A stretch of DNA of 64,000 nt. Origin: Polyangiaceae bacterium (GTDB taxonomy: Bacteria > Myxococcota_A > Polyangia > Polyangiales > Polyangiaceae). The stretch lies in the NCBI GenBank assembly GCA_016712345.1, contig JADJRH010000002.1, positions 200,466 to 264,465 on the forward strand, given 5' to 3'. Both the position numbers and the translations under genes were made by a program. The notes beneath the pieces are model-generated. The model was not told the origin of the DNA and did no database searches. It saw only the letters and a program-made list of their open reading frames with translations. Shown here in pieces: positions 3,514 through 25,774 of this stretch. Each line of letters opens with the position of its first letter. Within the stretch, counting starts at the first letter, position 1.

Positions 3514-4071
3514 CTAGGGAATGGTCACTTTTTCGAACAAAGCACCTGTGCATCCGGCCTGTTCCAAGCGGTTCTTCAACTCCATAGAAACGATCATCTC
3601 AACGTAAGATCCCCACAATCTGAAACAGTGAACTGGTGGTGGAATCTGACTTGTATCTAAGACTAATTTCGTGATTGACCGGTACTGACCTGCCAGATCA
3701 GCGCGGTGATCACTGGCTGTCCATTTTGTAAATCGAGATTGATTCTCATCCACGCATCGAAGAACCCGAAGGACGTTAACTGCCATCATCTGCGCGGACT
3801 CACCTAGTACAATCGGTAGGATCTGAACGTCGTCCCCGGCGACCTCTCTAAAAATGGTCGCCAACTTAGGTGTTACAATCGGGACTCCGAAACTTGTCAG
3901 CGAAAAATCTAACCTGGCTCCCCGGTGATGTATCGGAGCTGACAATGGGGTTGTCAAATGCAAAGCAATTCCGCCCTTCAGATCAGGTTCGGCACCGTCG
4001 GAAAGAGTAACTTCGCCGATGTGCCATCGGTTCGAACTTCGCATGTCGTCGAAAACTTGAAAGTACATCAT
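3514..4071 (-). CDS. Putative immunity protein for the orphan Rhs toxin tip.
   Basis: The start ATGATG overlaps the TGA of the upstream toxin ORF in an ATGATGA arrangement. The 185-aa gene has markedly lower GC (~48%) than its surroundings. No named family recognised. Confidence 0.6.
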   Translation of the reverse strand: MMYFQVFDDMRSSNRWHIGEVTLSDGAEPDLKGGIALHLTTPLSAPIHHRGARLDFSLTSFGVPIVTPKLATIFREVAGDDVQILPIVLGESAQMMAVNVLRVLRCVDENQSRFTKWTASDHRADLAGQYRSITKLVLDTSQIPPPVHCFRLWGSYVEMIVSMELKNRLEQAGCTGALFEKVTIP

Positions 4072-5552
4072 GGTTGAGTCAGTAATTTGTTAAGATCTGA
4101 ACCAGGCGTACTTAGCTCTTTGCTCATTGCGTCGAGTTCAGATCGAAAGGCTTCCGCGTACCTATCGCCCGAAAGCCCTCGGGTTGCGCGTTCCAAACGC
4201 TGGGACACTTCGCGATGATATGCTTCCGAATGGGGCCCGCGGTGTCCTGGGACTCGCACTTTATTAATTGCGTCATCGAGAGTCATTCCGGCCTTTTCGG
4301 CCATTCTTTCGAACCGCTGCGTCCACGGACCACCGTTGGATGACGAAACACGGTTCTTGTTTGTCATGATATGGTGCACCTGTCCATCCCCACCTTTTGG
4401 CGCCGACATCCATGCGTTAATCCCCGCCAAAATGTTTCCCGCACCACCCACAACGCCGACGGTAGAAACGGCAATTGCCGGCACTCCAACTGCCGCACCT
4501 ACCCCGGTCACGGTCGCCGCCCCGCCGAAGATCTCCCCACCAAGCGACGTGGCCGTGGTGTACAAACCGCCGCCAATCATCCCAAGCGCCTTGCCGCGCT
4601 CAAAGTACACCGAACGGCGCTTTACCAAGCCTTCCGCAAGGGCCGCTTCTTCGGCCACCCCTGCACCGGGTACAATGCCCAATAGTGCCCCACTAAACCC
4701 GCCCGCGATTGTCTGAAGAACGGGATGATTATACCACGGCTCGTCTTCCGCTTCCTCGTCAGGTTCGGCGGTTATGTCTTCCGATCCCGTGCTGTCCACG
4801 TCGGTTTTCGGCTCACCTACCCCGTGTTCCGCTTCTTTCTTAGGTTTGTCTTCCGTCGGCGGCCCGGCCTTTGATCCCGGTACAGAAATCTCCACATACC
4901 CACTCGGGTCCACGGGTAGGGAAGGCTCGCGCTTAGGTTCGCCGTCAAATCCGCTTGGGTCAGTATAGGTCAGCGGATTATTGAAAACGTAACTGTAGGG
5001 GTTCCACGCCTGACTGAATGTCCAATTCTGAATGATGGGATCAGTGCTCAGAAACCTACCCAACTTGGGATCAAACATTCGCCCTTTCATGTTGACTAAA
5101 CCGATCTCCCCATCGTCTTCATGCCCCGTAAATCCAAGCGAAATCGAATCTGGAAAGCTCGCAGGTATAGGGGCGCCCCACTCGGGATTTCTCCGCCGGC
5201 CGAAGGCGTCGTAACTGCGCCGCTCGGTGACCTTCCCATCGGCGTCTGTGAGTACGTCCACCGATCCCAAATGATCCGCGTGCACATACGTTGTGCCTGG
5301 TTGATTACCTCCAAGCGTGACAATCGCGATCACGCGTTCAGGCGAGTGCACATAAAATCGCTCGGTGAGCGCGTTCGCGGCGTCTTTGACACGTTCGTAC
5401 AGGTCGGCGAAATAAAGCGTTTCGTGCGTTGCGGTTAGATCGAGAGTGAACCGCGCTTGCCTGCGCAAAACGGGCTTGCCGTGCTTTGGCTCGCCTTCCT
5501 CGGGATGGTCAGAAACCAACGCGGCACCTAACAAGGTTGCCAAGCCGCCCAA
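4068..5552 (-). CDS. Orphan Rhs C-terminal cassette: an RHS repeat-associated core fused to an alternative C-terminal toxin domain (possibly HNH/AHH-like nuclease).
   Basis: Residues ~40-260 are near-identical to the main Rhs gene's core (THETLYFADLYE...YDAFGRRRNPEWG...GHEDDGEIGLVNMKGRMFDPKLGRFLSTDPI...NPYSYVFNNPLTYTDPSGF). After that it diverges into a different tip containing ...QVHHIMTNKN...GHRGPHSEAYH.... It has its own unique 40-aa N-terminus. Confidence 0.8.
   Translation of the reverse strand: MGGLATLLGAALVSDHPEEGEPKHGKPVLRRQARFTLDLTATHETLYFADLYERVKDAANALTERFYVHSPERVIAIVTLGGNQPGTTYVHADHLGSVDVLTDADGKVTERRSYDAFGRRRNPEWGAPIPASFPDSISLGFTGHEDDGEIGLVNMKGRMFDPKLGRFLSTDPIIQNWTFSQAWNPYSYVFNNPLTYTDPSGFDGEPKREPSLPVDPSGYVEISVPGSKAGPPTEDKPKKEAEHGVGEPKTDVDSTGSEDITAEPDEEAEDEPWYNHPVLQTIAGGFSGALLGIVPGAGVAEEAALAEGLVKRRSVYFERGKALGMIGGGLYTTATSLGGEIFGGAATVTGVGAAVGVPAIAVSTVGVVGGAGNILAGINAWMSAPKGGDGQVHHIMTNKNRVSSSNGGPWTQRFERMAEKAGMTLDDAINKVRVPGHRGPHSEAYHREVSQRLERATRGLSGDRYAEAFRSELDAMSKELSTPGSDLNKLLTQP
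4925..5436. repeat. Inverted copy (~88% nt identity) of the Rhs core segment 24448-24975.
   Basis: Reverse-complement of 5341-5460 aligns base-for-base with 24451-24530 with few mismatches. Protein-level identity is ~95%. Confidence 0.75.
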
Positions 5553-5735: not shown

Positions 5736-7772
5736 CTACTTCGGCTCCGGCGGATCGTAGATTTTCTTTACGTCGGCACCGCCCACGAACGCGTACGAGC
5801 CGGCGCTTCCATACCCATAAGCGACAATTCCAAAGGGCTTGTCACCTGACAGGTTGTGGGCGCCTTCTTGGAGCGGGCAGCGACGGGTTTCATACTCCAC
5901 ACCGGCGAGGTTGCCGGCCGGTTGGGTAGAACATCCACCCGGGGAGGTGCCGTCAATGGAGACGTTGGTGCCCACTTCGGCAACGATGACGACCCAATTT
6001 TGGTTCCACGAGCCGGGGGTTAGAATAACATATTCTGTGCGGTATTGGTCAACCGGTGGGAAGACGGTGAGGGAAGGATCGCCGATGTACGCACCGTCGC
6101 AGTATTGATTGCTGACAAGGATCTGACCAATCATGACGGGGGTGTCGGAGGTGACAACCACGTCGCCCTGGGTCCAGGTGGTTTTGACTTCACCCGGTTG
6201 GAGGGTGAATTGGTTGAATGGGGCGGGGAGGGTAGTGGTGACGTTGGTGACTTCGGCGGCGCCGACAAACCGGAGGATGTCAGGTTCTTTAAAGCCGCCC
6301 GTGGAACGCACGGGGCTGCGGGGAATGACGTAGTTTTTACCGACCGATTCCACCGGGAAGAGTTGGTCTTCAAGGTGGTCAAGGCAGCAGGTGTTGTCGG
6401 TTGTCCAACCGGGTGGGGTGGGAATGTCCACAACGCCGCCGGGAGCACCTGTGCTTTCTACCCCGGAGAATACGGCCACCGGCGCGTTGGCCGTGACAAG
6501 GGTACCTGACAAGTCGGCAATGGTTTTTGGATCGTCTTGGAATGTGCCGTCGTCCGTTTCAAGGTTGAGCACGTCAAACGGGCCAATGGTAAGACTGATG
6601 TCGCCGCCGGCTGGTGTGGCTGCAACGGGGGGATTTCCCTTGATTCGCCAGCTGGGTTTTACTTTGACAACGGTGTTGGGGGTGGTGCCGACAATGGTGA
6701 CATACGAGCGATCGAGAATGTTGAACCCGCCGAATTTGACGGGGTGGCCGGCGGGCCAGCCGATTACGCGGTAATAGGTTCCAAGTGCGTTGGTGGGTAG
6801 AAGAAGCGACGCATCGTTGGAATACGCGTTTTCAAAAACGTTGAATTGGTAGACAACGATGGGCGCGCTTGACTTAATGCGGAATGCGCGCGAGGAGAGG
6901 CAGGTTCCAGGGGAGGCGTAGTCGTTGGGTTGGACGCCGCAGTCAAGTTCACGCGTGGGTAGAACAAGGGCGTACAAGGCCCCGGGGTTGACCTCGGCGT
7001 CGGCGACTTTTGAAAGCTGGAGGGGTTGCCCGGGAGCGGCTTCGTTGATCTCAATGGAGACAACGGCTTTGGTTTGGCCGGCGTTGGAAAGCGCGACACC
7101 CCACGGTGCACTGGCCGGATCGTTGAAGCCGTCTTGTTGGTCAAGGTCAACCGCCCAAAATTCACACCCAACGTTGGAAGGTTGACCTTCTGCCACAACA
7201 CATGCGCTGATGCAGGCGCCGTTGGAACACGTTAAGCCGAGGGCCGGATCGCAGGTTTCTACCGGGGTGGTGCCGATTGTACCTTGGTCGGTGCACTGGT
7301 AGACATCATTGCCGAGGCAGGTTTTTCCACCGGGGTAACAGTCCACACAACCGAGCTTGGGAGCGCACGCTTTGGGGCATGTTTCAGGTGTGCCCGGCGT
7401 GCCGTCGCTGTTGCATGGGATGTAGGAGCCGGCGTTGCAAATGTCGCAAACATCGGAGTTGCCTCCGATGCCGCCGTTGCCGCCGTTGTTGGATGAGGTG
7501 GACGCCCCCGCGCCGCCGCCGCCTGTGGTGTTATTTGGAGCGGCGGAACAACCGAATTGAGATGGCAAAAGCGCCAAGAATAAAAGGGAAGAAATGGGTA
7601 GTAGGGTACGGCTCGAACGCATGAGGGTAGAGTGCCCGAGTGCGCGTGAGAAGTCAGTACGAAACGACCGACGCAGTGCGGTAACTGAGACGTCTCGCAA
7701 CGACCTGAAACGCCTCGCGACGACCTGACATGTTGTACTAAACACGGAGGCACGGACTACACGGAGGTTCAC
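5736..7772 (-). CDS. Secreted cysteine-rich repeat protein, probably a lipoprotein. Likely start MRSSRTLLP at ~7622.
   Basis: Signal peptide/lipobox-like N-terminus (LLFLALLPSQFGC). Multiple CxxCxxGxY...C repeats of the myxobacterial cysteine-rich type, then a large beta-rich region. Confidence 0.7.
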   Translation of the reverse strand: MNLRVVRASVFSTTCQVVARRFRSLRDVSVTALRRSFRTDFSRALGHSTLMRSSRTLLPISSLLFLALLPSQFGCSAAPNNTTGGGGAGASTSSNNGGNGGIGGNSDVCDICNAGSYIPCNSDGTPGTPETCPKACAPKLGCVDCYPGGKTCLGNDVYQCTDQGTIGTTPVETCDPALGLTCSNGACISACVVAEGQPSNVGCEFWAVDLDQQDGFNDPASAPWGVALSNAGQTKAVVSIEINEAAPGQPLQLSKVADAEVNPGALYALVLPTRELDCGVQPNDYASPGTCLSSRAFRIKSSAPIVVYQFNVFENAYSNDASLLLPTNALGTYYRVIGWPAGHPVKFGGFNILDRSYVTIVGTTPNTVVKVKPSWRIKGNPPVAATPAGGDISLTIGPFDVLNLETDDGTFQDDPKTIADLSGTLVTANAPVAVFSGVESTGAPGGVVDIPTPPGWTTDNTCCLDHLEDQLFPVESVGKNYVIPRSPVRSTGGFKEPDILRFVGAAEVTNVTTTLPAPFNQFTLQPGEVKTTWTQGDVVVTSDTPVMIGQILVSNQYCDGAYIGDPSLTVFPPVDQYRTEYVILTPGSWNQNWVVIVAEVGTNVSIDGTSPGGCSTQPAGNLAGVEYETRRCPLQEGAHNLSGDKPFGIVAYGYGSAGSYAFVGGADVKKIYDPPEPK

Positions 7773-9434: not shown

Positions 9435-10514
9435 TTAACGCGACGAAGAGACGATTTTGGATCCTGGGGCACCTGCGCGGGCAAGCTTTTCTTCAACCAT
9501 GAGATCGGCCACGCGATACGTGGGAGTGAGTGTACTCATGCTTCGCTCGGCGATCTCGTGGATTGTGTCGTAGATCTTGAGGGTGCGGTCGCGCGAGATC
9601 GTGGCGTTGTACCCAACCACTTCTTGAGCAACGTTGATGAGGCCGCCCGCGTTGATGGCGTAATCGGGCGCGTACAAAATGCCTCGTTGATTGAGGTCGT
9701 CGCCGTGGCGAGGCTCGTGGAGCTGATTGTTGGCCGCGCCGGCCACGATTTTGGCTTTGATGCGCGGTACAGTTTCATCGTTGATGGCCGAGCCGAGCGC
9801 GCATGGGGCGAGCACGTCACATTCAATTTCAAAGATGTGGTCGAGCGGCACGATGTCGGCGCCAAACTCGCGCTGCGCGCGTTCGCTCTTGAGCGGATCC
9901 ACATCGGCCACGCTGAGCTTTGCGCCGCACGCCGCCAGCTCTTTGCAGAGGTGGTAACCCACGTGTCCAACGCCCTGAACCGCCACGTGCAGGCCTTCGA
10001 GTGAAGAGCGACCGAGTTTGAGTTGGGCGCACGCTTCAATTCCCCTTCGAACGCCGAGCGCTGTGAACGATGAGGGATCGCCCGAACCTCCATTTTTCAC
10101 ATCGACACCGGTCACGTGTTTTGTTTCGTGACGAATCAGCTCCATGTCTTCAAGGCCGGTGCCCGAGTCTTCGGCCGTGATGTACCGACCCCCAAGCGCA
10201 TCTACAAATCGCCCGAAAGCAAGGAAAAGAGCGGCCCTGTCAAACACCGGAGCGGCGGGTCGCAAGAGTACACTTTTGCCACCGCCGTGAGGTACACCTG
10301 CGAGCGCGGCCTTGTAAGTCATGCCGCGCGCGAGACGCAGCGCGTCAACCAATGCCTCCTCTTCTCGGGCGTATGCGAGGAAGCGACAACCTCCAAGCGA
10401 AGGGCCCAATCGAGTGTCGTGAATGGCAACAATGGCGCGCATTCCGCTCGCTGGATCTCGGCGAAAATGCACTTCGCCGTAATCGTAGGAGGCGAGGTGT
10501 GAAAAGACGTCCAT
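9435..10514 (-). CDS. ldh: Leucine (Glu/Leu/Phe/Val-family) dehydrogenase.
   Basis: The family signature GVPHGGGKSVL is present, with a Rossmann NAD domain (GVGHVGYHL). The likely start is MDVFSHLASYDYGEVHF, the internal Met of the ORF. Confidence 0.85.
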   Translation of the reverse strand: MDVFSHLASYDYGEVHFRRDPASGMRAIVAIHDTRLGPSLGGCRFLAYAREEEALVDALRLARGMTYKAALAGVPHGGGKSVLLRPAAPVFDRAALFLAFGRFVDALGGRYITAEDSGTGLEDMELIRHETKHVTGVDVKNGGSGDPSSFTALGVRRGIEACAQLKLGRSSLEGLHVAVQGVGHVGYHLCKELAACGAKLSVADVDPLKSERAQREFGADIVPLDHIFEIECDVLAPCALGSAINDETVPRIKAKIVAGAANNQLHEPRHGDDLNQRGILYAPDYAINAGGLINVAQEVVGYNATISRDRTLKIYDTIHEIAERSMSTLTPTYRVADLMVEEKLARAGAPGSKIVSSSR

Positions 10515-10728
10515 GGGTTTCCCTGTGCGTTGTGTGAGAGCGACTTGTTTGCGTGCCTCGTTACCACAGTGCGTCGTTTGGTGCGGTGGTTTGAGTGCGC
10601 AAAAAGTCTTTTTTTCAGGGCTCCGCGCGTCGGCGGAAGAGCAGCCGGTGATATAAGTGAACGTCATCGATCAACGCGTGGGCACTCCGCGCGGTGAGCA
10701 AAAAACTTAGAAGAAGGGTTCATCGGCG

Positions 10729-12582
10729 ATGCGGACCAAAATCATTCCGAGCGCACTGTTCCTGACCGCTCTCGCAGCGGTCGGATGCGGTGACGGCGGG
10801 GAGAGTTCCACGGGAGGAACCACCTCCACGACCCCGTCCAAACCACCCACCGTTGTCGATATTGTTGTCGACGCCAATCGCGATGGGAAACTCGATCCGG
10901 CCGATCCCGCCGATCAAGACAAAGAAAACGAATGGAGCGTCGACAGCGGCGCGTCGTTTTTGGCAAACCTCGATGACGACGACGCGGACAAGTTTCGCGA
11001 CGTAGACGACCAGATCATCAACGGGCCGGATGATGAACTCGACCTGGCGAAGATGCAGCTCGTCGCGTGGCCCGACGCTCCCGACGGTGCGCTTGGTGTA
11101 CTCCATATCGATCCGATGAGCGCCCAGAACATTCGCCTCTGGAAAAAGGGGCTCGACGGCGCTTGGTGGCTCGTCGGTGGCAACGTCGGTCCCTGCAACG
11201 AAGTGGATCCGGCGTGCACGGTGACACCCGACGTAACGTTTCCAATCGAAGAAGTGCGCGCGGGGCTCACGCTCGGGATCGAAGCGCGTTTCTTCCGTCG
11301 CTCACTTGCGCCTGAGGCGTGGACGGGCATTGTGCAGCTCGGCTATCAGGTAAACGACAAAGACGGTGCGCCGATCACCGACGACAACATTCCCGATGGG
11401 CTTGATCAGGCCAAAATTCGCGTTGCCCCGTGGATGTTGTTTGGCAACCTTTCTCCTTTTGATCGCGTTTGGTCCAACAACGTAATGCCGGCATTTGTGT
11501 CGGGTCTTTCAACGCTGTCGACGGAAGCGGGCGTTACCTACAAGAAGATCACCAACTGGCAGGATCACTGGACTCAAGACTATTTCCAAACGGGGTACAC
11601 AACGATCCCGGTTGAAAACGGCGCCGTTCAAGGCATGCGCATCGCCAACGCAAGGCCGTGGGGTCGCTGCGACTCGCCTTCGTGTTGGCCGATCAACTGG
11701 CTCAAAAAAGGGTATTTGTCGCCCGGAAACGGTGTGATCGAGATCTACAACAAGCCCAATACGGGTTCGACGTACGACTCGCATGGCAACCACGATCTGC
11801 TGCCTCCGTATGAAAACGGAGAATCAAAATATCCCTTTGGTCGCATCGCAATCGGCTCAGGTGTACTCAAAGAAACCAAAGATTTTTACGCTGCGCAGGA
11901 GGTTCAAGGCCCGCCGATCATCGTGAAAACGTCGTGGCTCTACGTGGGTCACATCGACGAAGTATTCAGTTATGTGCCCGCGAACACGCCGCGCGGGTGG
12001 AAGCTTTTGGTAGGTTCACCCAAGCTCGCAAAGTCCATGCTTGAGGCGGCTCAAGCGGCCGGACACGGCGCGGTGACCATGTTTAAAGGGCAAAAGTGGT
12101 ACACCGAAAATGGCAGTCTCATAGACGCCGAAGTTTCAATTGACGAGGTGCTCGCCAATCAAGATCTGCTTGCTGCGTCGCAAGAAGCGCAAGGCGAGAT
12201 CGACGACATGATTGCCCAACTAAAAGAAGAGGTGGGTCTGGCGGACGACGAGATCGTCGAAATGCCGTATCTGCTCCAAGACCTCTTTGGGCAGAAGGTC
12301 GCCTTTAACCCGGGCACGGCCAACATGCTTGTTGTGGCCGACCACTTGGGCATTCCCAAACCGTGGGGCCCCGTTATCGACGGTGCCGACATTTTCGAAA
12401 CCGATCTTGAAGAGCGCCTTGGAGCACCGGGCCAAAACCTCGGATCCGACGGCAACGGTCTTATCGTTCACTTCATCGACGACTGGGAGTGGTACCACGC
12501 GCTCGACGGTGAGGTGCATTGCGGCTCCAACGTGGATAGCGTGCCGCCCGCGGATCAAACTTGGTGGAAGGTGTTGAAATGA
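10729..12582 (+). CDS. Eukaryote-type protein-arginine deiminase (PADI-like) lipoprotein.
   Basis: Lipoprotein signal (LAAVGC). The C-terminal catalytic domain aligns block-by-block with human PAD4: KYPFGRIAIGSG, SWLYVGHIDEVFSYVPAN, ANMLVVADHLGIPKPWGPVIDG, and the terminal DGEVHCGSNV active-site Cys motif. The N-terminus has a WQDHWTQDYFQTGY block resembling PAD4's WMQDEMEIGY. Confidence 0.85.
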   Translation: MRTKIIPSALFLTALAAVGCGDGGESSTGGTTSTTPSKPPTVVDIVVDANRDGKLDPADPADQDKENEWSVDSGASFLANLDDDDADKFRDVDDQIINGPDDELDLAKMQLVAWPDAPDGALGVLHIDPMSAQNIRLWKKGLDGAWWLVGGNVGPCNEVDPACTVTPDVTFPIEEVRAGLTLGIEARFFRRSLAPEAWTGIVQLGYQVNDKDGAPITDDNIPDGLDQAKIRVAPWMLFGNLSPFDRVWSNNVMPAFVSGLSTLSTEAGVTYKKITNWQDHWTQDYFQTGYTTIPVENGAVQGMRIANARPWGRCDSPSCWPINWLKKGYLSPGNGVIEIYNKPNTGSTYDSHGNHDLLPPYENGESKYPFGRIAIGSGVLKETKDFYAAQEVQGPPIIVKTSWLYVGHIDEVFSYVPANTPRGWKLLVGSPKLAKSMLEAAQAAGHGAVTMFKGQKWYTENGSLIDAEVSIDEVLANQDLLAASQEAQGEIDDMIAQLKEEVGLADDEIVEMPYLLQDLFGQKVAFNPGTANMLVVADHLGIPKPWGPVIDGADIFETDLEERLGAPGQNLGSDGNGLIVHFIDDWEWYHALDGEVHCGSNVDSVPPADQTWWKVLK

Positions 12583-13511
12583 GCCGCAACAAAACGTCAC
12601 TTTGGGGTCTTGTGTTGGGAGCCGCCGTGGTTGCCCTTTCGGGTAGCGCGCGCGCCGACGGCATTGCACTCAGTGCGGCTGAACTTCCTTCACAAGTAAA
12701 GCAATCGCTCGCCAAAGATGTGGCGGCGTACAAAGCCGCGCACGCGGCCGATTTTAAGCCTGTGCGCGACGTGCAGGGCATTAAGCCCGATGTGTACAAA
12801 GCCTATCGAAACCCGCAGCCCGTTGCGGTGCTCGAGCTGAAACGCCTCGGTGCGGGCGCGCTCTTGCCCATGCTTGACGTGCTTGCTCTCGACGCCCCCG
12901 CGCTGACGTTGAGCGACAAAGAAAAAACAGCGTACATCGTCGGCCTGCTTGAAGCTTCGAGCGCGCTTCGCGATGCCCGCAGTGGGCCTGTGTACACAGC
13001 GATCTTTGAGGCGAAAAACAAGCCGAATGATGTGCTGCGTGCCGCGGCGGAGGCTCTCGGGCGCGTGTGCGGCGATGCCGAACTTGGCACCCTCAAGAAA
13101 CACACCGCCGCAGGTGATGCGTTGCGTACACATGCTATTCGCGGTCTGTCGCAGTGCCGTCGCAAAGAAGGTGTGGAGCACCTCGCAACACTTCTCGGCG
13201 CCGCATCCGATGCCGCTTCGGCTGAGCCCATCGCCGACGCTCTCGGGCTCGCGTCGTCGAGCTGGGCGTGGAAAGCCATGGGAGCCAAAAGCGCGGCGGC
13301 AGCCAAAGACGTTCAGCAAATTGCCGCGAAGGCGCTCATCACTTCGTTCGTGAAGCACAAAGACGCGCGCCCGGCGGCTCGAAAAGCCCTCAAGTTGGTT
13401 GAGTCTCCCGATGCGGTCACGCTCATCGCGGCGGCTCGAACAAGCGCCGACGCAGTCACACAGAGCGCGCTTGACGAACTCGCCAAAGCCGTCACCCCCG
13501 CTACCAAGTAG
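12579..13511 (+). CDS. Secreted alpha-helical (HEAT/ARM-like) repeat protein, translationally coupled to the PAD gene.
   Basis: Its ATG overlaps the PAD TGA (ATGA). It has a Sec signal (MSRNKTSLWGLVLGAAVVALSGSARA) and an Ala/Leu-rich helical repeat composition. Confidence 0.6.
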   Translation: MSRNKTSLWGLVLGAAVVALSGSARADGIALSAAELPSQVKQSLAKDVAAYKAAHAADFKPVRDVQGIKPDVYKAYRNPQPVAVLELKRLGAGALLPMLDVLALDAPALTLSDKEKTAYIVGLLEASSALRDARSGPVYTAIFEAKNKPNDVLRAAAEALGRVCGDAELGTLKKHTAAGDALRTHAIRGLSQCRRKEGVEHLATLLGAASDAASAEPIADALGLASSSWAWKAMGAKSAAAAKDVQQIAAKALITSFVKHKDARPAARKALKLVESPDAVTLIAAARTSADAVTQSALDELAKAVTPATK

Positions 13512-13525
13512 ATAACGGCCAATAG

Positions 13526-13553
13526 GCACAGCGCGTATTCTTTGCGCTGTGCT
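13526..13553. terminator. Hairpin (GCACAGCGC ... GCGCTGTGC, 9-bp stem) immediately after the 12579-13511 gene.
   Basis: Inverted repeat seen 15 nt past the stop. No U-tract. Confidence 0.35.
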
Positions 13554-13828
13554 CAGCCCCAATCCTGATCAGTTAAGACAAGAAAGCCTTCTCTCTGTGA
13601 GGTTTGGCGGCTCCTGCCGCCTGGTAGCTACCTGCCGACGGCCCCGCCGAATTCACGTTTTCGTCGCGGCTGCATTCGCAGGAAACACGTTATGGAGAAG
13701 GCTTTCGCGCCGCGCTTTTCGCTTTCTCGCTCGGCAGCGGGCAAGGGTGTCCGAAACGTCGCGACGACCCTGACTCCGGGCTTCGCTGAAACGTTTCGAC
13801 TGCTTAAGATCCGACCTATGAACCCGGA

Positions 13829-14830
13829 TTAGCGATCTTCGATCGTCATTGCGCTCTTGAGCGCGTCTTTGTTCGGCCGAACATCAAAGTTAAATCCAAT
13901 GTTCATTCTGCCCGCGTAATACGACTCCACGTCGCCGCGCAGCGGTGTTGTCACCGGGAACAAGAAACTCAGCGCCGGCTGAATGCGAGGCAGCATTAAT
14001 CGAATGCTCGGCGACACGGCAAATGCCGCTCGATTGTCGTCGTTGGCGAGTTCCTTTGTCACCTCGTAAACCTCCCACAACTCCACGCCGATACCGAGCC
14101 ACTCACTCAACCGGTAGCCCATGTAAAACGTGAGCCGCGCCGTGAAATTGGTAATTCGAGGATTGCTTCCCGACGGTGTACCCCCCGGGATTTCTTCGGG
14201 ACCGTTAAGGGAGATCGACCAATCAATGCCTTGTCGAAGCTGAAAAATAAGCCCTGAAACAACGTGCCGAATGTCGATCCACGGCCTAAACGTGAGCGTC
14301 AAACTGGAGAAACTCGCCAGATCCCACGGCTTCACCGTGCGCACTGTGCGCAGCACTTCGGTTTCAACAGGAGAAAGTGCGCGCGGCGTGGGGAGCACAA
14401 TGCCAAGCCCGCCGCCCGACGAAAGGCCTCGACTGGAGGACCACAAGCCTCGTCCGCTGATCTCAGGGTTTCCAAGCAAAAAAGCGGTGCCAACGCCGGG
14501 CAGAGCCGCCGCCGCAATATCGTTTGAAAGGCCTATAAACCACTGCCGCGGAACAATCGGATATTCGGCATCGGTGTGCATGAAGTACGCAAACGCATCA
14601 CCGGATCGGTCTTGATCTTTGGGCTGAATCACCGCGGCTGTCAGCTCAAAGTTAAACGTCAGATCGCGGTGAGCGAGCGCTGGCAACGTCGGCGGGGCAG
14701 GCGCATCCAACACACTTTTCAAGTCGTCCCCGGAGCCGTTGAGCGCCGACTGCGCAAGAACAGATTCTGCGCGGAGAACAACCAACAGAAACAAACCGGC
14801 CGAGAAAACCCGGCCCAACGTGGAAGTCAC
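13829..14830 (-). CDS. Hypothetical secreted/outer-membrane protein.
   Basis: Signal peptide and a beta-rich composition. Its start overlaps the rseP stop by 4 nt. Confidence 0.5.
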   Translation of the reverse strand: MTSTLGRVFSAGLFLLVVLRAESVLAQSALNGSGDDLKSVLDAPAPPTLPALAHRDLTFNFELTAAVIQPKDQDRSGDAFAYFMHTDAEYPIVPRQWFIGLSNDIAAAALPGVGTAFLLGNPEISGRGLWSSSRGLSSGGGLGIVLPTPRALSPVETEVLRTVRTVKPWDLASFSSLTLTFRPWIDIRHVVSGLIFQLRQGIDWSISLNGPEEIPGGTPSGSNPRITNFTARLTFYMGYRLSEWLGIGVELWEVYEVTKELANDDNRAAFAVSPSIRLMLPRIQPALSFLFPVTTPLRGDVESYYAGRMNIGFNFDVRPNKDALKSAMTIEDR

Positions 14831-15951
14831 TTCTTTCCGAGAATGTCGTTGAACACGGTCACATAGCCCATCAACCCGAGCAGCATGATGAGCCCAACAC
14901 CGTGAATGACAGCTTCAATACGGGGGTTGGCGCGACGCCGCGTTGCGGCTTCGTACGTGAGAAAAATGAGCCGACCGCCGTCGAGAGCCGGAAATGGAAT
15001 GAGATTAAACGCTCCCAAATAGGCCGACAAAGCAGCCAAAAACTCGATGAAATCGGCCCAACCACCTTCAGCCGCGGCGGCCGTTTGTTCAACCATCGCT
15101 TTGGGACCGCCAAGCTCTTTTACCGAGCCTTCGTGTACCCATTTTTTCAGATTGATAAACAGCTCGGCAACCACCATTGCCGGTTGCTCAAACGCCTGGA
15201 TCGCAGCCTCTTTCATGGTCATCGGGATGCGCTCTCGAAAGAGCCCAACACCGATTCGACCTTTGCCTTCTTCGTTTGCGGGGGTGACCGTGATGGTGAC
15301 GCGCTCCCCTTTTCGCATCACGTCCACGGAGATTTTTTCTGCGGGGTGTTTCGAGATGTTTTCGGCCATTTTTGACCACGTTGAAACCTCAACACCCGCA
15401 ACGTTCACCACTTGATCGCCGTCTTTGAACCCCGCGAGCATGGCAGGTTTTCCAGGCAGAACACCGATGATCGTTGACTCGCGCTCCACATGGCGCCCGA
15501 CTGCTGCGTACACACCAAAAAACACCAGCGCAGCAAACACGTAGTTGGCAAGCGGCCCCGCAAAGATCGCCGCGATCCGGCCTGTCACGCTCGCGTTTGC
15601 GTAACTGCCTTTGTCCTTTGGATCCACCTCTTCGAGTGGATTCATCCCGGCGATTTGCACGTACGCGAGGAATGGAATGGCCGCGACCTGAAACACTGTC
15701 GGCCCATGTTTTTCGGGCACGTGTTTCCACAGCCGCAGTCTCACTTTGCCCGCCGCCGTTGTGAACCAGTAATGGCCGTCTTCGGGCACAATCTTGAAGA
15801 TCGTTGGGCCGAACCCGATCGAGAACTTGATCACGCGCATGCCGTAGGCGCGGGCGGCGAAGAAGTGGCCGCCTTCGTGCACGATCATGAGCAAGGCGAG
15901 GCCGAGAGCACCGATGAGGTACTTGAACCAAGGGGGCATCGAGCGGAGCAT
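14827..15951 (-). CDS. rseP: RIP (site-2) zinc metalloprotease RseP.
   Basis: HEGGHF (HExxH) in TM1, a PDZ region, and a C-terminal LDGG motif. Confidence 0.9.
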   Translation of the reverse strand: MLRSMPPWFKYLIGALGLALLMIVHEGGHFFAARAYGMRVIKFSIGFGPTIFKIVPEDGHYWFTTAAGKVRLRLWKHVPEKHGPTVFQVAAIPFLAYVQIAGMNPLEEVDPKDKGSYANASVTGRIAAIFAGPLANYVFAALVFFGVYAAVGRHVERESTIIGVLPGKPAMLAGFKDGDQVVNVAGVEVSTWSKMAENISKHPAEKISVDVMRKGERVTITVTPANEEGKGRIGVGLFRERIPMTMKEAAIQAFEQPAMVVAELFINLKKWVHEGSVKELGGPKAMVEQTAAAAEGGWADFIEFLAALSAYLGAFNLIPFPALDGGRLIFLTYEAATRRRANPRIEAVIHGVGLIMLLGLMGYVTVFNDILGKK

Positions 15952-19173: not shown

Positions 19174-22100
19174 ATGAACGTGCGAACGTCGTTTCCTTTA
19201 GGCAGCAATCAACGCGCGGCGAACAAGCCACCCTTGCGGCTGACTTGGTTCGCGCCGTGGGTGTTTCTGATCATCCTTTCAATCACACAAGGCGCCTGCA
19301 CCTGCATCACAAGCGAGGCGCCGCCCCCGCGCGAAATCGTCGCATGTGTACCCCAACACGAAACGCGCGCTACCAAACTTCCAACCTCCCGCGCAAGTGA
19401 AACCGCCGCCGCCGGTAGCCTGCAAGGGACATTCTCTGTCACCCCTACCGGTGAAGCTTCTTTTGTCGTTCCTATACCCACGCCACCGGGTAGAGCCGGG
19501 ATAGAGCCACGGGTAGCCCTCGCCTATAACAGCGCCGAGGGCGACGGTGTAGCGGGTCAAGGCTTTTCGCTCTCGGGTTCATCGGCGATCACGCGTTGCC
19601 CTAAGAACATGGCCCAAGATGGGGAGATCTGCGCCGTCCGGTATGACGCCGAGGATAAACTCTGTTTGGATGGTCAACCGCTTGTACAAGTCGCCGAAGA
19701 AACCGGACAACTGGAATACCGGACCTTACCCGACACCTTTGTGAAAGTGGTAGGTCATGCGCCGATCGCAGGCGTTCCGCAATGGTTTGAAGTGTTCGCT
19801 CCGAATGGCGTGATCACCGAGTATGGTAGAAGCGCCTCAACAAGACCGCGCGGACCCAACAATTCTACCCGCGCTTGGTTAGCCGCCAAAACCCACGACG
19901 GCCGCGGCAATGCGTTGATCTACGGGTATTGTTTCGCCAATGCCGAAGAGTACACCGCTGAGTACGCATTGGATGAAATTCGGTATACCCAATTTGACGG
20001 GACACCCGCCCTTGAACCGACACGGGCCGTCAAGTTTGTGTACGCGCAACGCAAGCCCGACCAAACGAGGCTTTCTTTTTCGCATGGAATGGTCGTTCAA
20101 CGCTCTTTACAACTCAACGAGATCCAAATGGTCGGCCCCGGTGAAGAATTGGTCACATGGGTGGACCTGGAGTACACAAAGAGTGAAGCCACCGGCCGCA
20201 CCTTACTCACAAAAATGGAAGAATGCGCTGCGGATGGAGTCTGTAAACCCGTTACGCTTTTTTCATACTCCACCCATGAAAAAGGCTTTATCGATCAATC
20301 TACCGAACTCGATTCGCCCACGTCCCGCAAGGCAAGCCCAATGCTTGTGGACATGGACGGCGATGGGCTTGACGATGTGTTAATCCCTGACACGCATCCC
20401 GCCCTTTCTACCCCTGCAAACCCGATCACAGAATGGCGGCTTTTCCACAATGGCACCTTGCCCGGTGAAAGTGTCACCTTTTCAGATCTGACCATTCCTT
20501 ACGTTCAAGATGACGTGTTTGTGGCCGATCCCAGCGGTCCCGCCGACCCTACCCAACTACAGCCCGAACTTGGAACGGTGCTTGATTACAACCAAGACGG
20601 CCGAAAAGATATCCTTCTCCATGACATCTACCAACAGGGGGCAACATGGAAGATTTTGATCGCCAAACCCGCCCCTCAAGCCGGACCCAACACCCCCACG
20701 TTTGAGATGGTAGATACAGGGATCGCTCGCCCCTTTGGCATCGGCGCCCAACCTGTACCACCTGCGTTGTCTACCAAAAACGGCTCCATGCACTTGGCCG
20801 ACGTCGACGGCAATCGCGTGGCCGACTTGATCCAATGCACCGATCACAGTGACTCGCTCACCGGTGACCCTTCTAAACCTGAATGGAAGGTGCACCGATG
20901 GTTGCCCGCGCACGGGGGTATACCTCTTGGATTTGACCCGGAAGGAGAAGTGATCGAAGCGCTCGAATTATACCGATGCGACGTCGACCTGAAAACGGTT
21001 GACATCGACGGAGACGGAAAAACAAATCTTCTTGTCGTGCCGCTTGAAGTGGCAGGTGATGGATCTGAAATTCAGGGCGTAAATTACGAAGCGCTTTCCC
21101 GCAACGAAAACGGCACGTGGGAAATTCGCGAAACAAACCTAACCATTCCCGCCCCAGGTGGACGCGTTGTATTTCTCGATGTGAACGGGGATGGTCTACC
21201 CGATGCAGTAGAGTCAGGTTTTTCGAACGGCGGGCTTTATACACTCCTCAACACCGGCAACGGCTTTGCACCCTCGCAGCTCAGTTTGGATGGTGGCGGT
21301 TACGGCGGGCAGGATGCGCTTTTCCGCTTTGCAACCCCAATCGACGCCAACGGAGACGGCAGGCAAGATCTTTTGGTGCCCATGTTCGCCGATGGACTCG
21401 GCGCCAGTGGTGAACCGCCCGAGTGGGTGTTTCTCATCGCACAACCGGGCATCCAATCGACGGGCACGTTCACCATCGAACCATCGGGCATTCCCTTTAA
21501 GCCGCTTTTGGGTGAAGCGGTCACTCTCGCCGATCCTCACGGGCCGCGCATCGGCGATCTGAACGGCGATGGAGCTTCGGATGTTGCCATTTGGTTGAGT
21601 GGCAAGCTCCACATTTTCGAAAATCAAGCGCGCGATCAAGACCTGTTGATCGGTGTACACCAAGGAACCAACCCGCATGATCCTACCGATCCTGAATATG
21701 TGCCCGACGTGGCCATTTCGTATGGCCATCTGACAGACTCTTCTATCACGACCAACACCGATCCAGATGCTTTGTCCAATGAGAGCGCGCTCTACCTTTC
21801 GCAATGGGACAAGGCCAATGGGTGCACCTACCCGCGACGGTGCAGCGTTGGCGCGCGCCGCGTTGTTTCGGAGTATCAGACGTTCGACGGGGTAGATGCT
21901 GGGCGCCGGTATAGCTTGCGGTACCGCGATGGACGGATATTCGTTGCACAGGGCTTTTTTGGGGTTCGGTGCGCGGTTTCTGACCGACCTCGACACCGGA
22001 GCGATCACCGCTGACTTTTTTGATAACCAGTCGTTTGACGCCACGTTTCAGACCTACCCATTTGCAAAGGTCCGATCGGCCCAATGGCGATCTACACCCG

Positions 22101-25100
22101 GTTGGGAAGGGTTGCCCGATCCTCAAAAGGTAGAACTGTCGTTTCTAAACACGACACGCCTTGTCGTGCCCACGAACAACAGCAAAACCTATTTCACGCT
22201 CACCACAGAAAACCGTTTGCGCCGAGCGCAAGGCGAATTTGACGCTACGGCGCAAGGGTCGAGTTTGCTGGAGTACACCCGAAGCGTTGAAAATGGTGCG
22301 GCAAACGTCCCCATCTTGCGCGACACAACCGCCAAGGTCACCAACTTCGACGACGTTGGAAATGTGCTTTCTGAAACGTCCGCGACGGTAGATGTCAACC
22401 TGACAACCACCATCGAGCGTACGGTAAAAAACGACGTTGATACCTGGAATCTTGGCCAAGTCACGCAGCAAAAAGAGTGCAGCGCGGCGAATGGGTTGAC
22501 GCAGTGTCGATCCATCCAACGATCGTTTACCCCTTACGGGGAGGTTGCGGGCGAAACGGTACAGGATGAAGCCGATCCCACAACGCGGATTGAGGTCAGT
22601 TACGGGCGCGACCATCATGGAAATGTGACCTCCCTCAGCGCGAAAGATCCCAAAGGCGCCGAACGCACCTCCACGATTACGTACGATTCAACTGGGCTCT
22701 ACCCTCGCGAACATACCAACCCGGCCGGCCATGTCACACGCACCGAGTTTGATCCACGGCTTGGCGTCGTGACCCGAATCACTGACGCAAATGGGCTTGT
22801 GACTGAGCATCAGGTAGATGGTTTCGGGCGCCTGACATTGAAAAAGCGCCCCGATGGTACAAGTACAAGTTTCACCATTACTCGCACGAGAGACGGGGCA
22901 CACAACCAGAACGCCTGGCGCATTCGCGAACGGACGATCGAAACAGGAGGGCAGGACGAAGAGATCGAACGCGACGCTTTCGGTCGAGTGGTTCAACATT
23001 GGTGGTATGGTCCGACACCGGAAGGTCAAACCAACGCGCCGCGGATCACGCAACGATTCGAATATGATCGGTTGACGGGTAGAGTCGCCCGAAGGTCAAT
23101 CCCCATGCGCGAGGATGCCGCGCCCAACAAAGTCGAATGGGATGAGTTTGTCACCGACGGGTTAGGCCGCGAGGTCAAACGCACCACGGCTTTCGGCGCC
23201 ACCACGGAAACGGAGTTTGATGGACTGACCATCAAGACGACCGATCCGCTTGGAAACGTGAGCATCGCAGAAAACGACGCCTTGGGTAGAAAGATCGCCG
23301 TCACCGACGCCGCCAACGGCGTTACGGTGTACACCTACGGGCCCTTTGGAAAGTTAACCAAAGTCACCGGACCCGACGGTGCAACCACGCTCACCACATT
23401 CGATGCGATGGGTAGACCGGTTGAAACGGTAGACCCCGACAAGGGAGGCACTCAACAAACCTACAACGCCTTTGGTGAGCTGGTTTCATTGGTAGACGCC
23501 CTCGGAAATGAAACCACCTTTGAACGTGATCCGCTCGGTCGAGTGACGAAGCGCCTCGACGATTTGGGCGCTACCACCGAAATCACAACGTGGACATTTG
23601 ACACGGCCCCGAACGGAAAAGGGAAGATCCACCATGTAAAGAGTATCGATGCAGAAAAAACGTACACCTATGATAAATTGGGAAGGGTAGAAAGTGTCAG
23701 CCTGGAGGTGACGGGGAACGGGCCCGCGATAACAGGAAAGATCGGTTATGATCTCTTCGGCCGCGTCGAAACCCTGACCTACCCAACGGCAAAGAGCAGC
23801 GTACCTTTTGCAGTCGTCCAAGACTACGACGCGCACGGGTTTACCCGTAAGGTGCGCGACCGAAACATCGATCTCACCTATTGGCAGTTGACCGGGGTGG
23901 ACGACGCCGGCAGGTTTGCGCAGGAACAAATGGGCAATGGAGTTTCTACTACCCATCGAACCTATTTCGCCGCGCAGCAAAGGCTAAGAAACATCACCAC
24001 AGAAAACGCGGCCGGTTTGGTGCAAAGTTTGGAGTTTGAATGGGATGCTCGCCTAAACCTGAAAAGCCGCACCGATGATTTGCAGCCACAACACACCACC
24101 GAACGATTCAGGTACGACGCCCTTGAGCGGCTAACGTGCTCGTATTTCTCGACGCAAGAAGATGTTTCGGCGCCTTGCGATTGGAGTTACCAATACGCGC
24201 CGAACGGCAACTTGACATACAAGTCCGACGTGGGCACGCTGGAGTATAACGATCCTACCCATCCTCACGGTGCCACCGCGGCCGGAGGGGCAGCATACCA
24301 ATACGACGCCACCGGCAACCAAACGGCTCGCCCCGTGGGGGTGAAGGTTGCGTACACCGCGTTTGATCTACCCAGAACGATCACCCAACCGAGCGGAGTG
24401 ATCTCGTTTGGATATGACGGCGACCAAAAACGTGTACGCAAGACAACCGCAACGCACGAAACGCTTTATTTCGCCGACCTGTATGAACGGATGAAAGACG
24501 CCGCGAACGCGCTCACCGAGCGATTTTATGTGCGCTCGCCTGAACGCGTGATCGCGATTGTCACCCGCGGAGGCAATCAACCGGGCACAATGTATGTGCA
24601 CGCCGACCACTTGGGATCGGTGGATGTACTCACCGATGCCGATGGGAAGGTCACCGAGCGGCGCAGTTACGACGCCTTTGGCCAAAGGCGAAATCCCGAG
24701 TGGGGCGCCCCAATACCCGCGAGCTTTCCTGACTCGACATCGCTTGGTTATACCGGCCACGAAGATGATGGAGAGATCGGTTTAGTCAACATGAAAGGAC
24801 GGATGTTTGATCCCAAGTTGGGTAGGTTTTTGAGCACCGACCCGATTGTGCAGGATTGGACATTTAGCCAAGCGTGGAACCCTTACAGCTACGTTTTCAA
24901 TAATCCGTTGACCTATACCGATCCAAGCGGATTTGACGGCGAACCCAAGCGTGAGCCGGGCGTGGTGTACATGCCGGAGGCAAATATCAAGGTGCCAGTC
25001 CCGACGAACGGGACCGCGCCACCCAAGGAGGACAAGCCCAAAGAAGAGAAGAAACACGGCGTGGGTGAAGGCGAAAACGATGTCAACACCACCGGGTTGA

Positions 25101-25774
25101 TCACCCCATTGGTTGACGCGGACGAAGAAGGGGAAGACGATCAACCGTGGTATCACCATCCCATCGCGCATGGGATCATCGGATTTGGCGCGGGGCTTGG
25201 ACTTGGCTATGTCCCCTTTGCTGGAATAACGGAGGAAATTCTAGAAAAAGCGCACGTACTGAATCCAGTCTCCCCGACGTATCACTATGCCAAGTCGGCG
25301 GGCATGAGCATTGGAGGGCTGATCGCCATGCTCCAGGGCTTTAATGAAATTGCGGGAGCTGTGATGCTCGCTCCCGAAATCGGTCCAGGCGGAACCGTGG
25401 CCATTTCTAACATGGCATTGGCCCAAGTGTCAGGTGGTGCACTGAATGTATACGCCGGCACGCAAGCGATGATGTCCGGGCCGAACGGACGGCAGAGCGC
25501 TGGGCCGTCCGCCACTCGCGGTGAAACTCCGGCCGCGCGTGCGGGCCGCGAAGCTCACAAGAATTGGAATCCAGGAAACGGTTTTGAAAAGGAGTTTCGA
25601 TTGCCGAGCGGTAAACGACCGGATGCGGTAAACTTCGAAACGAAAGAGGTGTTGGAATTGAAACCAAACAACCCGGAGGCAATTCGAAAAGGCGAAGCTC
25701 AACTCCGGGAATATGTTGATGAGTTGAATAAGCATTTTGGCGGTGGATTCACCGGTCGCGTAGTTACGTATTAA
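19174..25774 (+). CDS. Rhs/YD-repeat polymorphic toxin (~2200 aa) with a C-terminal PD-(D/E)xK nuclease-like tip. The reading frame is broken by a 1-nt indel in a T6 run at 21955-21960.
   Basis: Track ORFs 19174..22014 and 21896..25774 overlap. Removing one T from GGGCTTTTTTGGGG joins ...RIFVAQGF to LGFGARFLTDLD... The N-terminus is SpvB/TcC-like with FG-GAP-type Ca-binding repeats (DMDGDGLDDV, DVDGNRVADL, DIDGDGKTNL, DVNGDGLPDA, DANGDGRQDL, DLNGDGASDV). These are followed by many YD repeats and an RHS core (GRMFDPKLGRFLSTDPI). The tip carries ...RPDAVNFETKEVLELK... (PD..ExK). Confidence 0.85.
24448..24975. repeat. Rhs core segment duplicated in inverted orientation at 4925-5436.
   Basis: See the paired repeat feature. 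The boundaries are where the main and orphan sequences diverge. Confidence 0.75.

Follow-up and report, generated by a model that had tools for sequence, protein, structure and literature searches.

In a stretch of 64,000 nucleotides (nt) from a Polyangiaceae bacterium (GenBank assembly GCA_016712345.1, contig JADJRH010000002.1, positions 200,466 to 264,465; hereafter the window, in whose own numbering all positions are given), we identified a gene for a two-domain protein-arginine deiminase that carries a lipoprotein signal (the window PADI; 10729..12582, + strand; 617 residues) and, overlapping its stop codon, a gene for an exported HEAT-like protein (the partner; 12579..13511, + strand; 310 residues from the ATG). 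The two genes form a conserved module that is common in myxobacteria and, in the loci examined here, specific to Myxococcota. We consider it probable, though well short of certain, that they encode an extracytoplasmic citrullination module, in which an exported, lipid-anchored PADI is coupled to a HEAT-like regulatory or escort partner.

Citrullination has been studied almost entirely as an intracellular, calcium-gated process of animals, and to our knowledge the only well-known extracellular bacterial enzyme that carries it out is PPAD of Porphyromonas, a member of another family. If the module works as proposed, PADI chemistry would be operating in the envelope or the surroundings of predatory soil and freshwater bacteria, and a PADI would have a natural protein partner, possibly an inhibitor or an escort, a point of interest given that PAD inhibitors are drug targets. 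We found no literature on the myxobacterial PADI, its partner, a locus tag for the Myxococcus xanthus gene or its proteomic detection. Three features appear to be new here: lipoprotein export throughout the family, a HEAT-like partner that is dedicated to the enzyme and translationally coupled to it, and where the clade stands relative to the cyanobacterial/animal lineage.

The window gene encodes a two-domain PADI

Pfam family PF03068 (PAD) matched residues 226-614 of the window protein over profile positions 5-395 of 395, with a score of 259.8 bits (E = 5.4e-77; cut-off 25), and it also matched all of the 21 family members tested. Human PAD3 and PAD4 chains in the PDB were matched with E values of 8e-52 and 4e-47, respectively, and PF04371 (PAD_porph, which covers PPAD and agmatine deiminases) gave no match at E ≤ 0.01. 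An AlphaFold2 model built from 21 homologs had a mean predicted local distance difference test (pLDDT) value of 86.3 and a predicted template modeling (pTM) score of 0.85, and Foldseek aligned it to the crystal structures of PAD1/3/4 over about 600 columns with TMq values of 0.76-0.78. Taken together, the sequence matches and the model confirmed membership in the peptidyl-arginine deiminase family, as a first-pass annotation of the window had proposed in preference to an agmatine or Porphyromonas-type deiminase.

The PAD_C catalytic domain (11404..12570, + strand) was delimited by the Pfam match and by residue mapping to PAD4. It is preceded by a PAD_M-like, Ig-type middle domain (10861..11403, + strand), which is beta-rich in the model and was located with the family profile (PAD4 ~113-293); this profile matched PAD4 from the start of PAD_M (~113) through the C terminus with E = 2e-84. 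PF08527 (PAD_M) matched 9 of 21 family members and gave no match to the N-terminal domain of the window PADI by itself, so that homology to PAD_M is taken from the family profile and the fold. No PAD_N (cupredoxin-like) domain was found in the window PADI, whose mature chain starts about 25 residues ahead of PAD_M. On the PAD4 chains, the family profile starts to align at position 79-113 according to the entry, and ahead of PAD_M its signal-peptide and tether positions pair only poorly with the last part of PAD_N. Since PAD_M and PAD_C are present and PAD_N is missing, the protein is, by its domain content, a two-domain bacterial PADI, unlike the three-domain animal/cyanobacterial type of Cummings et al. 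(PMC8826395).

Catalytic residues are invariant and one calcium site is absent

A residue map from PAD4 to the window PADI was taken from the family-profile alignment, and conservation was scored across 81 family members. PAD4 residues D350, H471, D473, and C645, the catalytic tetrad, correspond to D284, H408, D410, and C598, and D-H-D-C occurs in all of the 80 sequences that cover these positions. Cys598 (codon 12520-12522) lies in the terminal motif GEVHCGSNV; the likeness of the catalytic domain to PAD4, down to this cysteine, had been claimed in the first-pass annotation and stands on the full alignment.

The ligands of calcium sites 3-5 (PAD4 N153, D155, D157, D165, D176, and D179) correspond to N80, D82, D84, D91, D102, and D105 and are conserved in 78-79 of 79 sequences. 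Site 1 is conservatively retained, with PAD4 Q349, E353, and E411 corresponding to Q283, Q287, and D356 (Q/E, E/Q, and E/D across the family). Site 2 (PAD4 E351, D369, S370, and N373) is not conserved: a Tyr stands at the E351 position, which is Phe/Tyr/Trp across the family, and the 369-373 (DSPR) loop is replaced. The calcium switch residue of PAD4, D388, corresponds to Gly333, at a position that is Asp in 73 of the 81 family members, Asn in 5, and Gly in 3.

The window PADI thus has the PF03068 catalytic domain and PAD_M in common with human PAD4 (1WD8/1WDA) and PAD3 (7D4Y). Its catalytic Asp/His/Asp/Cys and its site 3-5 ligands are identical to those of vertebrate PADI1-4, its site 1 is conservatively Q, Q, D, and the interdomain strand "RVAPW" is found in both. 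In contrast, the vertebrate enzymes have PAD_N and are cytosolic or nuclear, whereas the window PADI lacks PAD_N and is predicted to be exported and lipid anchored; its site 2 ligands are gone, and Asp388 is replaced by Gly. Further differences are a loop of about 12 residues (GMRxANxRPWGR) beside the site 2 region, peculiar to the family, as well as likely disulfides and the dedicated partner gene. The earlier label "eukaryote-type" therefore claims too much for a protein without PAD_N, calcium site 2, and the Asp388 switch.

PADI carries a lipoprotein signal throughout the family

The N terminus of the window PADI, MRTKIIPSALFLTALAAVGC followed by GDGG, reads as a signal peptide and then a lipobox (LAAVG-C; 10729..10788, + strand), with Cys20 (codon 10786-10788) as the predicted lipidation site. 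Cys20 is invariant in the 21-member alignment. Among 77 related N termini, 70 have a lipobox by regular expression (a few of the picks are doubtful) and 5 show near-lipoboxes by eye, while the remaining 2 (L057 and L058) begin at a contig end. A tether rich in Gly/Ser/Thr/Pro (residues 21-44; 10789..10860, + strand) separates the lipid anchor from the folded enzyme; it is of low complexity and variable in the family alignment, and pLDDT falls below 50 for residues 1-35.

None of the related PADI lipoboxes has Lys at +2. Among M. xanthus lipoproteins, a +2 Lys is enriched in those of the inner membrane (8/12), and a +2 Lys put into FibA caused no inner-membrane retention (PMC3222651). With no Lys at +2, the outer membrane is the default destination, to which PADI is probably sorted, as judged by its N-terminal sequence.

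The cysteines of the mature protein point in the same direction as the signal peptide. Cys156 and Cys163 co-occur strictly, both being present in 25 sequences and neither in 56, and this pattern makes a disulfide between them likely; Cys314 and Cys319 likewise co-occur strictly in the family. The count of mature cysteines is odd in most family members, which, along with the co-occurring pairs, fits disulfides plus one catalytic Cys in an oxidizing compartment.

PPAD of Porphyromonas gingivalis is a citrullinating enzyme that acts outside the cytoplasm, bound to the cell surface and to vesicles (10.1101/2020.07.16.207027). The analogy is a functional one only: PPAD (PF04371) belongs to a different family in the guanidino-modifying superfamily, is calcium independent, leaves the cell by type IX export rather than as a lipoprotein, and is devoid of PAD_M.

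The partner is an exported HEAT-like protein encoded in overlap with PADI

The partner ATG (12579-12581) and the PADI TGA (12580-12582) overlap in the sequence ATGA at 12579-12582. With a GGAAGG Shine-Dalgarno-like site at 12566-71 and a 7-nt spacer ahead of it, this overlap makes up a translational-coupling junction (12566..12582, + strand). A promoter/terminator scan of 10400-14000 yielded nothing beyond the shuffled background, and NCBIfam and PADLOC scans of PADI and partner returned no matches.

The partner starts with a Sec signal (residues 1-26; 12579-12656, + strand), is all-helical, and has a basic mature chain (isoelectric point [pI] 9.4). Its predicted fold is an alpha-solenoid of stacked helical hairpins, as expected of HEAT proteins at the fold level. 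PF13646 (HEAT_2) scored 21.6 bits against the window partner, below the gathering cut-off of 27.7, and PF13646 matches occur in some homologs; the sequence motifs PMLxALA and SSWAWK are also found in the partner. Known PBS-type HEAT proteins (alphaRep designs, Escherichia coli YibA [1OYZ], and CpcE/F [5N3U]) are cytoplasmic, whereas the partner has a Sec signal. Unlike these relatives, it belongs to a discrete family of about 310 residues that is sharply set apart from generic HEAT proteins; a search of 1.84 billion representatives placed 318 clusters in it at E ≤ 1e-30, and at the loci examined it was found only beside PADI genes.

A basic protein with a median Arg content of 9%, produced in step with a deiminase, could itself be the main substrate of that enzyme, or else an adaptor that presents substrates to it, HEAT solenoids being classical scaffolds; citrullination of the partner, or of proteins that it holds, would then alter its charge and function in the envelope or matrix. 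We regard this explanation as improbable. The conserved partner arginines sit in repeat motifs typical of PBS-type HEAT repeats, where they look structural, and a 1:1 ratio of enzyme to substrate would be uneconomical for a catalyst. The loop arginine R77 was considered as a pseudo-substrate and dropped, because it is invariant in alignment A4 and not in the closer alignment A2.

PADI and partner are conserved together across Myxococcota

The PADI alignment was scanned against GTDB species representatives, which gave at least 573 relatives, and the best 80 loci were examined for the partner. All of these 80 loci are from Myxococcota (Polyangiaceae, Labilithrix, Polyangium fumosum, Myxococcaceae, Archangium, and Pyxidicoccus), the nearest relative being in the Polyangiaceae metagenome-assembled genome ABC1.6 (78% identity). 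Within Myxococcota, the number of relatives contradicts the rarity of bacterial PADI homologs that the first-pass annotation had stated; in addition, 837 bacterial PF03068 PADs had been catalogued by 2020 (10.1101/2020.07.16.207027), and the M. xanthus PADI is present in a published tree (PMC8826395). In the survey of those 837 PADs, Harris et al. described the genomic contexts as "highly diverse" (10.1101/2020.07.16.207027); compared with the diverse contexts of actinobacterial PADs, the window family has a fixed partner.

A hidden Markov model of the partner detected it at 76 of the 80 loci, in every case on the PADI strand. It lies directly downstream in 72 loci and directly upstream in three (L064, L069, and L070), and in L061 it follows a second, tandem PADI (PADI-like open reading frames of 619 and 742 residues, L061 2982-8041); it is absent from L031, L035, and L072, and at L067 the contig ends. 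A 4-nt NTGA stop/start overlap joins about 61 of 77 pairs, and a Sec signal is present on the partner in nearly all loci. Clustering of the neighboring open reading frames revealed no other conserved neighbor gene, the next real family occurring in 12 of 81 loci and being missing from the window, and Pfam searches with the extra neighboring genes were uninformative.

The association was also followed in the opposite direction, starting with the partner homologs P0134, P0157, and P0152. Each of the three overlaps by 4 nt a large gene directly upstream. In two cases this gene encodes a Pfam PAD protein; the product of the third, 624 residues long and with no Pfam match on record, is PADI sized and has the same neighborhood as the window PADI. 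Both the lipoprotein signal and the ATGA overlap with an exported HEAT-like gene, which the first-pass annotation had read from the window, have thus been recovered as traits of the family, and the PADI, lipobox, and overlap features cannot be due to chance.

Several unusual arrangements were noticed. Two PADI paralogs about 11 kb apart on the Myxococcaceae contig JALHOS010000008.1 (L053/L063) each have their own partner. A metagenomic gene call of 801 residues, P0269, runs from a complete partner with a signal peptide into a PADI. We considered it as a partner-PADI fusion ("Rosetta stone") and rejected it as ambiguous, because an internal Met, a signal peptide, and a lipobox are all retained in the PADI part; the call resembles a read-through in the partner-upstream arrangement, due either to a lost stop codon or to a sequencing or gene-calling artifact. 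In the metagenomic subclade L082-L084, the pair is immediately preceded by genes for a short asparaginase-domain protein (PF00710, 173-176 residues; ~1.7-2.3 kb in locus coordinates) and for a giant CLIPPER/LTD surface protein.

Enzyme and partner also change together. Their pairwise identities co-vary with r = 0.81 over 2211 comparisons, with mean identities of 41% for the enzyme and 32% for the partner, which evolves faster. The enzyme is acidic (pI 4.1-5.0; net charge of -45 for the window PADI), and the partner is basic, with a pI above 8 in 66 of 67 proteins and a median pI of 9.6.

For a predator, an attractive explanation of such a pair is effector and immunity: the lipoprotein PADI would be an effector in predation or competition, delivered by the cell surface, outer-membrane vesicles, or outer-membrane exchange and modifying arginines of prey or competitor envelope proteins or of cationic peptides, and the HEAT partner would be a periplasmic inhibitor that protects the producer. 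The pair is, however, single copy, of uniform architecture, and co-divergent at the above-mentioned r value across two Myxococcota classes, and the usual marks of an arms race (polymorphism, orphan immunity genes, and patchiness) were not seen. In addition, catalytically intact PADIs occur at L031, L035, and L072 without an adjacent partner, L081 keeps local synteny with housekeeping genes (Leu/Phe/Val dehydrogenase), and there were no PADLOC or toxin-family matches. We therefore hold this role to be rather unlikely. Polymorphic toxin-immunity pairs are marked by variable toxin modules, a patchy distribution, and an immunity gene that an active toxin cannot do without; the module was rejected as such a pair on the grounds of its co-divergence, its uniform architecture, the partner-less intact PADIs, and the absence of a PADLOC match.

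The partner could also be an unrelated gene that merely shares the operon of an enzyme acting on free arginine, small peptides, or a guanidino compound in periplasmic nitrogen or ammonia metabolism. Myxobacteria do live on amino acids and peptides, and an asparaginase-domain gene is found near PADI in L082-L084. Nevertheless, we give this explanation very little credence: fold and active-site residues agree with peptidyl-arginine deiminases rather than with enzymes for free arginine or agmatine, PAD_M with its calcium sites has been kept, and a partner in 76 of 80 loci with a start/stop overlap far exceeds chance operon sharing. Furthermore, an actinobacterial PAD acts on a lasso peptide (10.1101/2020.07.16.207027) and a cyanobacterial PADI acts on proteins (PMC8826395).

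A proposed extracytoplasmic citrullination module

From the family, the fold, the catalytic and calcium residues, the export signals, the operon structure, and the co-conservation of the pair, we infer the following mechanism for the citrullination module favored here. The first gene would yield a calcium-binding peptidyl-arginine deiminase that is exported, lipidated at Cys20, and held on a flexible tether of about 25 residues, and that would turn arginine side chains into citrulline by the standard Cys598/His408/Asp284/Asp410 mechanism. Its targets would be envelope, extracellular, or foreign proteins or peptides. The partner, made by coupled translation on the same mRNA and at roughly 1:1 with PADI, would most likely bind the very acidic enzyme through its basic periplasmic HEAT-like solenoid as a dedicated regulatory or escort subunit and could mask or guide it until the site of action is reached. 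Because calcium is not limiting outside the cytoplasm, the calcium control of cytosolic animal PADIs would be unavailable to such an enzyme, which makes a protein partner a plausible substitute restraint. A stoichiometric regulatory or escort subunit is accordingly our best guess for the partner.

Four points weigh against this proposal. First, L031, L035, and L072 have an intact catalytic tetrad and no adjacent partner, so that a partner gene beside PADI is not indispensable. Second, the co-variation and the charge complementarity are equally expected of genes that are merely co-inherited. Third, an inner-membrane or periplasm-facing location of PADI is also possible on its sequence, as lipoprotein sorting rules in Polyangia are not established. 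Fourth, with Gly at the Asp388 position and site 2 missing, the calcium dependence of the enzyme may differ from that of animal PADs. The question is directly testable, since the pair is carried by cultivated strains such as Labilithrix luteola DSM 27648 and Polyangium fumosum DSM 14668; a PADI is also present in Minicystis rosea.

Position of the window clade among PADIs

In the published PADI trees, M. xanthus DK1622 and "Chondromyces apiculatus DSM 436" group with S. mobaraensis, and these three are placed sister to a clade of cyanobacteria, animals, and Lysobacter/Thalassospira (PMC8826395). We computed neighbor-joining (NJ) trees from 10 references of the PMC8826395 alignment, 34 family sequences, and one Streptomyces plasmid PAD (533 columns; Kimura or gamma distances, bootstrapped; root unknown). 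On one side of the deepest split were animals, three-domain cyanobacteria, Limnoraphis, Lysobacter, the window clade, and the L027 group. On the other side were the paired types of Labilithrix/Polyangium/Myxococcaceae, M. xanthus DK1622 with L035 and L072, the actinobacteria, and the fungus. This bipartition received 96-98% bootstrap support on all 533 columns with either distance, 88% on the PAD_C columns only, and 51% on the PAD_M columns only. Monophyly of all Myxococcota PADIs received at most 3% with all groups included and 18% without the L027 group.

Sequence motifs agree with the deepest split. The Trp of "RVAPW" is common only to animals, cyanobacteria, Lysobacter, and the window clade; the other myxobacterial types have (F/L)HH, as do actinobacteria and fungi, and the L027 group has DSFGNLEV and GPDFG(W/Y)V in common with animals. 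The raw identities to the animal/cyanobacterial group are flat, however, at 28-32% for every other group, which makes long-branch attraction a real risk for a split seen in distance trees only. The bearing on the origin of animal PADIs that the first-pass annotation suggested thus gains some support, inasmuch as NJ places the clade on the animal/cyanobacterial side. Lineages of this kind, absent from the published alignment and trees that we searched, would sit near the branch to cyanobacterial and animal PADIs and would allow a sharper test of the horizontal-transfer story.

A known system on that side of the split is the three-domain cyanobacterial PADI (SPM/NX clade), which is active on eukaryotic proteins (Cummings et al. 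2021, PMC8826395). Like the window PADI it is a bacterial PF03068 enzyme with RVAPW, and the two fall on one side of the deepest split at 96-98%. It differs by possessing a PAD_N, albeit a degenerate one, together with Asp389 and calcium sites 2 and 4; no lipobox is seen in the cyanobacterial sequences of the alignment. From the other side, the PAD of Streptomyces albulus makes citrulassin, its substrate being a lasso peptide (10.1101/2020.07.16.207027). Actinobacterial and fungal PADs match the window PADI in their PAD_M + PAD_C architecture and in their catalytic and site 3-5 residues, but the Streptomyces and fungal references carry a triple-His motif, APVLTHHH or APVLLHHH (PADI2 300-302), where the window PADI has RVAPWMLFGN. 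The one Streptomyces plasmid PAD that we inspected has the THHH motif, no lipobox, and no HEAT neighbor.

Both partner and lipobox are present on either side of the deepest split. Because partner-bearing lipoprotein PADIs fall on both sides, one may speculate that Myxococcota are the ancestral home of the whole PADI family and that the ancestor was an exported lipoprotein with a HEAT-like partner, although we judge this unlikely. If the topology is right and the root lies near the split, the cyanobacterial/animal and the actinobacterial/fungal cytosolic PADIs would be two separate offshoots. Under a myxobacterial origin, both offshoots would have lost the lipid anchor and the partner, and the partner would be an ancient PADI regulator or inhibitor and a natural PAD-binding scaffold.

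The partner-less L035 (Myxococcaceae bacterium GXIMD 01537, CP120527) and L072 (Pyxidicoccus caerfyrddinensis) cluster with M. xanthus DK1622 at 61% support, which may explain why the pairing went unnoticed in the model organism. Members of this subgroup have drifted motifs around the catalytic Cys (GNVHC/GQVHCATQ), and ahead of its catalytic His the M. xanthus PADI reads VDH instead of VGH. As published (PMC8826395, supplement file 9), the M. xanthus PADI starts with MVDLRADVNRNG and has no signal peptide, which may reflect a miscalled start.

Neighborhood and other observations in the window

The pair is flanked on the minus strand (9435-10667 and 13829-15951) by genes for a Leu/Phe/Val dehydrogenase, a 333-residue signal-peptide protein of no known family, and an RseP-like M50 protease. 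All three lie near the PADI pair in L081, whose partner is 66% identical, in a rearranged order; their retention there speaks for a chromosomal setting passed on vertically and against a mobile island.

Elsewhere in the window, a gene for an SpvB + FG-GAP protein (19174..22014, + strand) is overlapped by one for a 1292-residue RHS-repeat protein with a C-terminal Tox-REase-9 nuclease domain (21896..25774, + strand), and 19174-25774 is an Rhs/Tc-like polymorphic toxin locus. A 494-residue protein with a C-terminal AHH (HNH/EndoVII) nuclease toxin domain (4068..5552, - strand) adjoins a 678-residue IgGFc_binding-domain protein (5736..7772, - strand). The segment 28240-33244 (+ strand) encodes an AAA_5 (MoxR-like) ATPase, a DUF2201 VWA/metallopeptidase protein, and an 847-residue protein with a major-vault-protein (MVP) "shoulder" domain (PF11978, 104 bits); it is unusual to find such a protein coupled to MoxR/VWA in a bacterium. 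Finally, outside the window, an unannotated segment of a Bacillus bombysepticus plasmid (NZ_CP007513.1, 539826-540643) is 37% identical to 69% of the PADI catalytic domain, a PF03068-like sequence that is unexpected there because Firmicutes have been reported to have very few.

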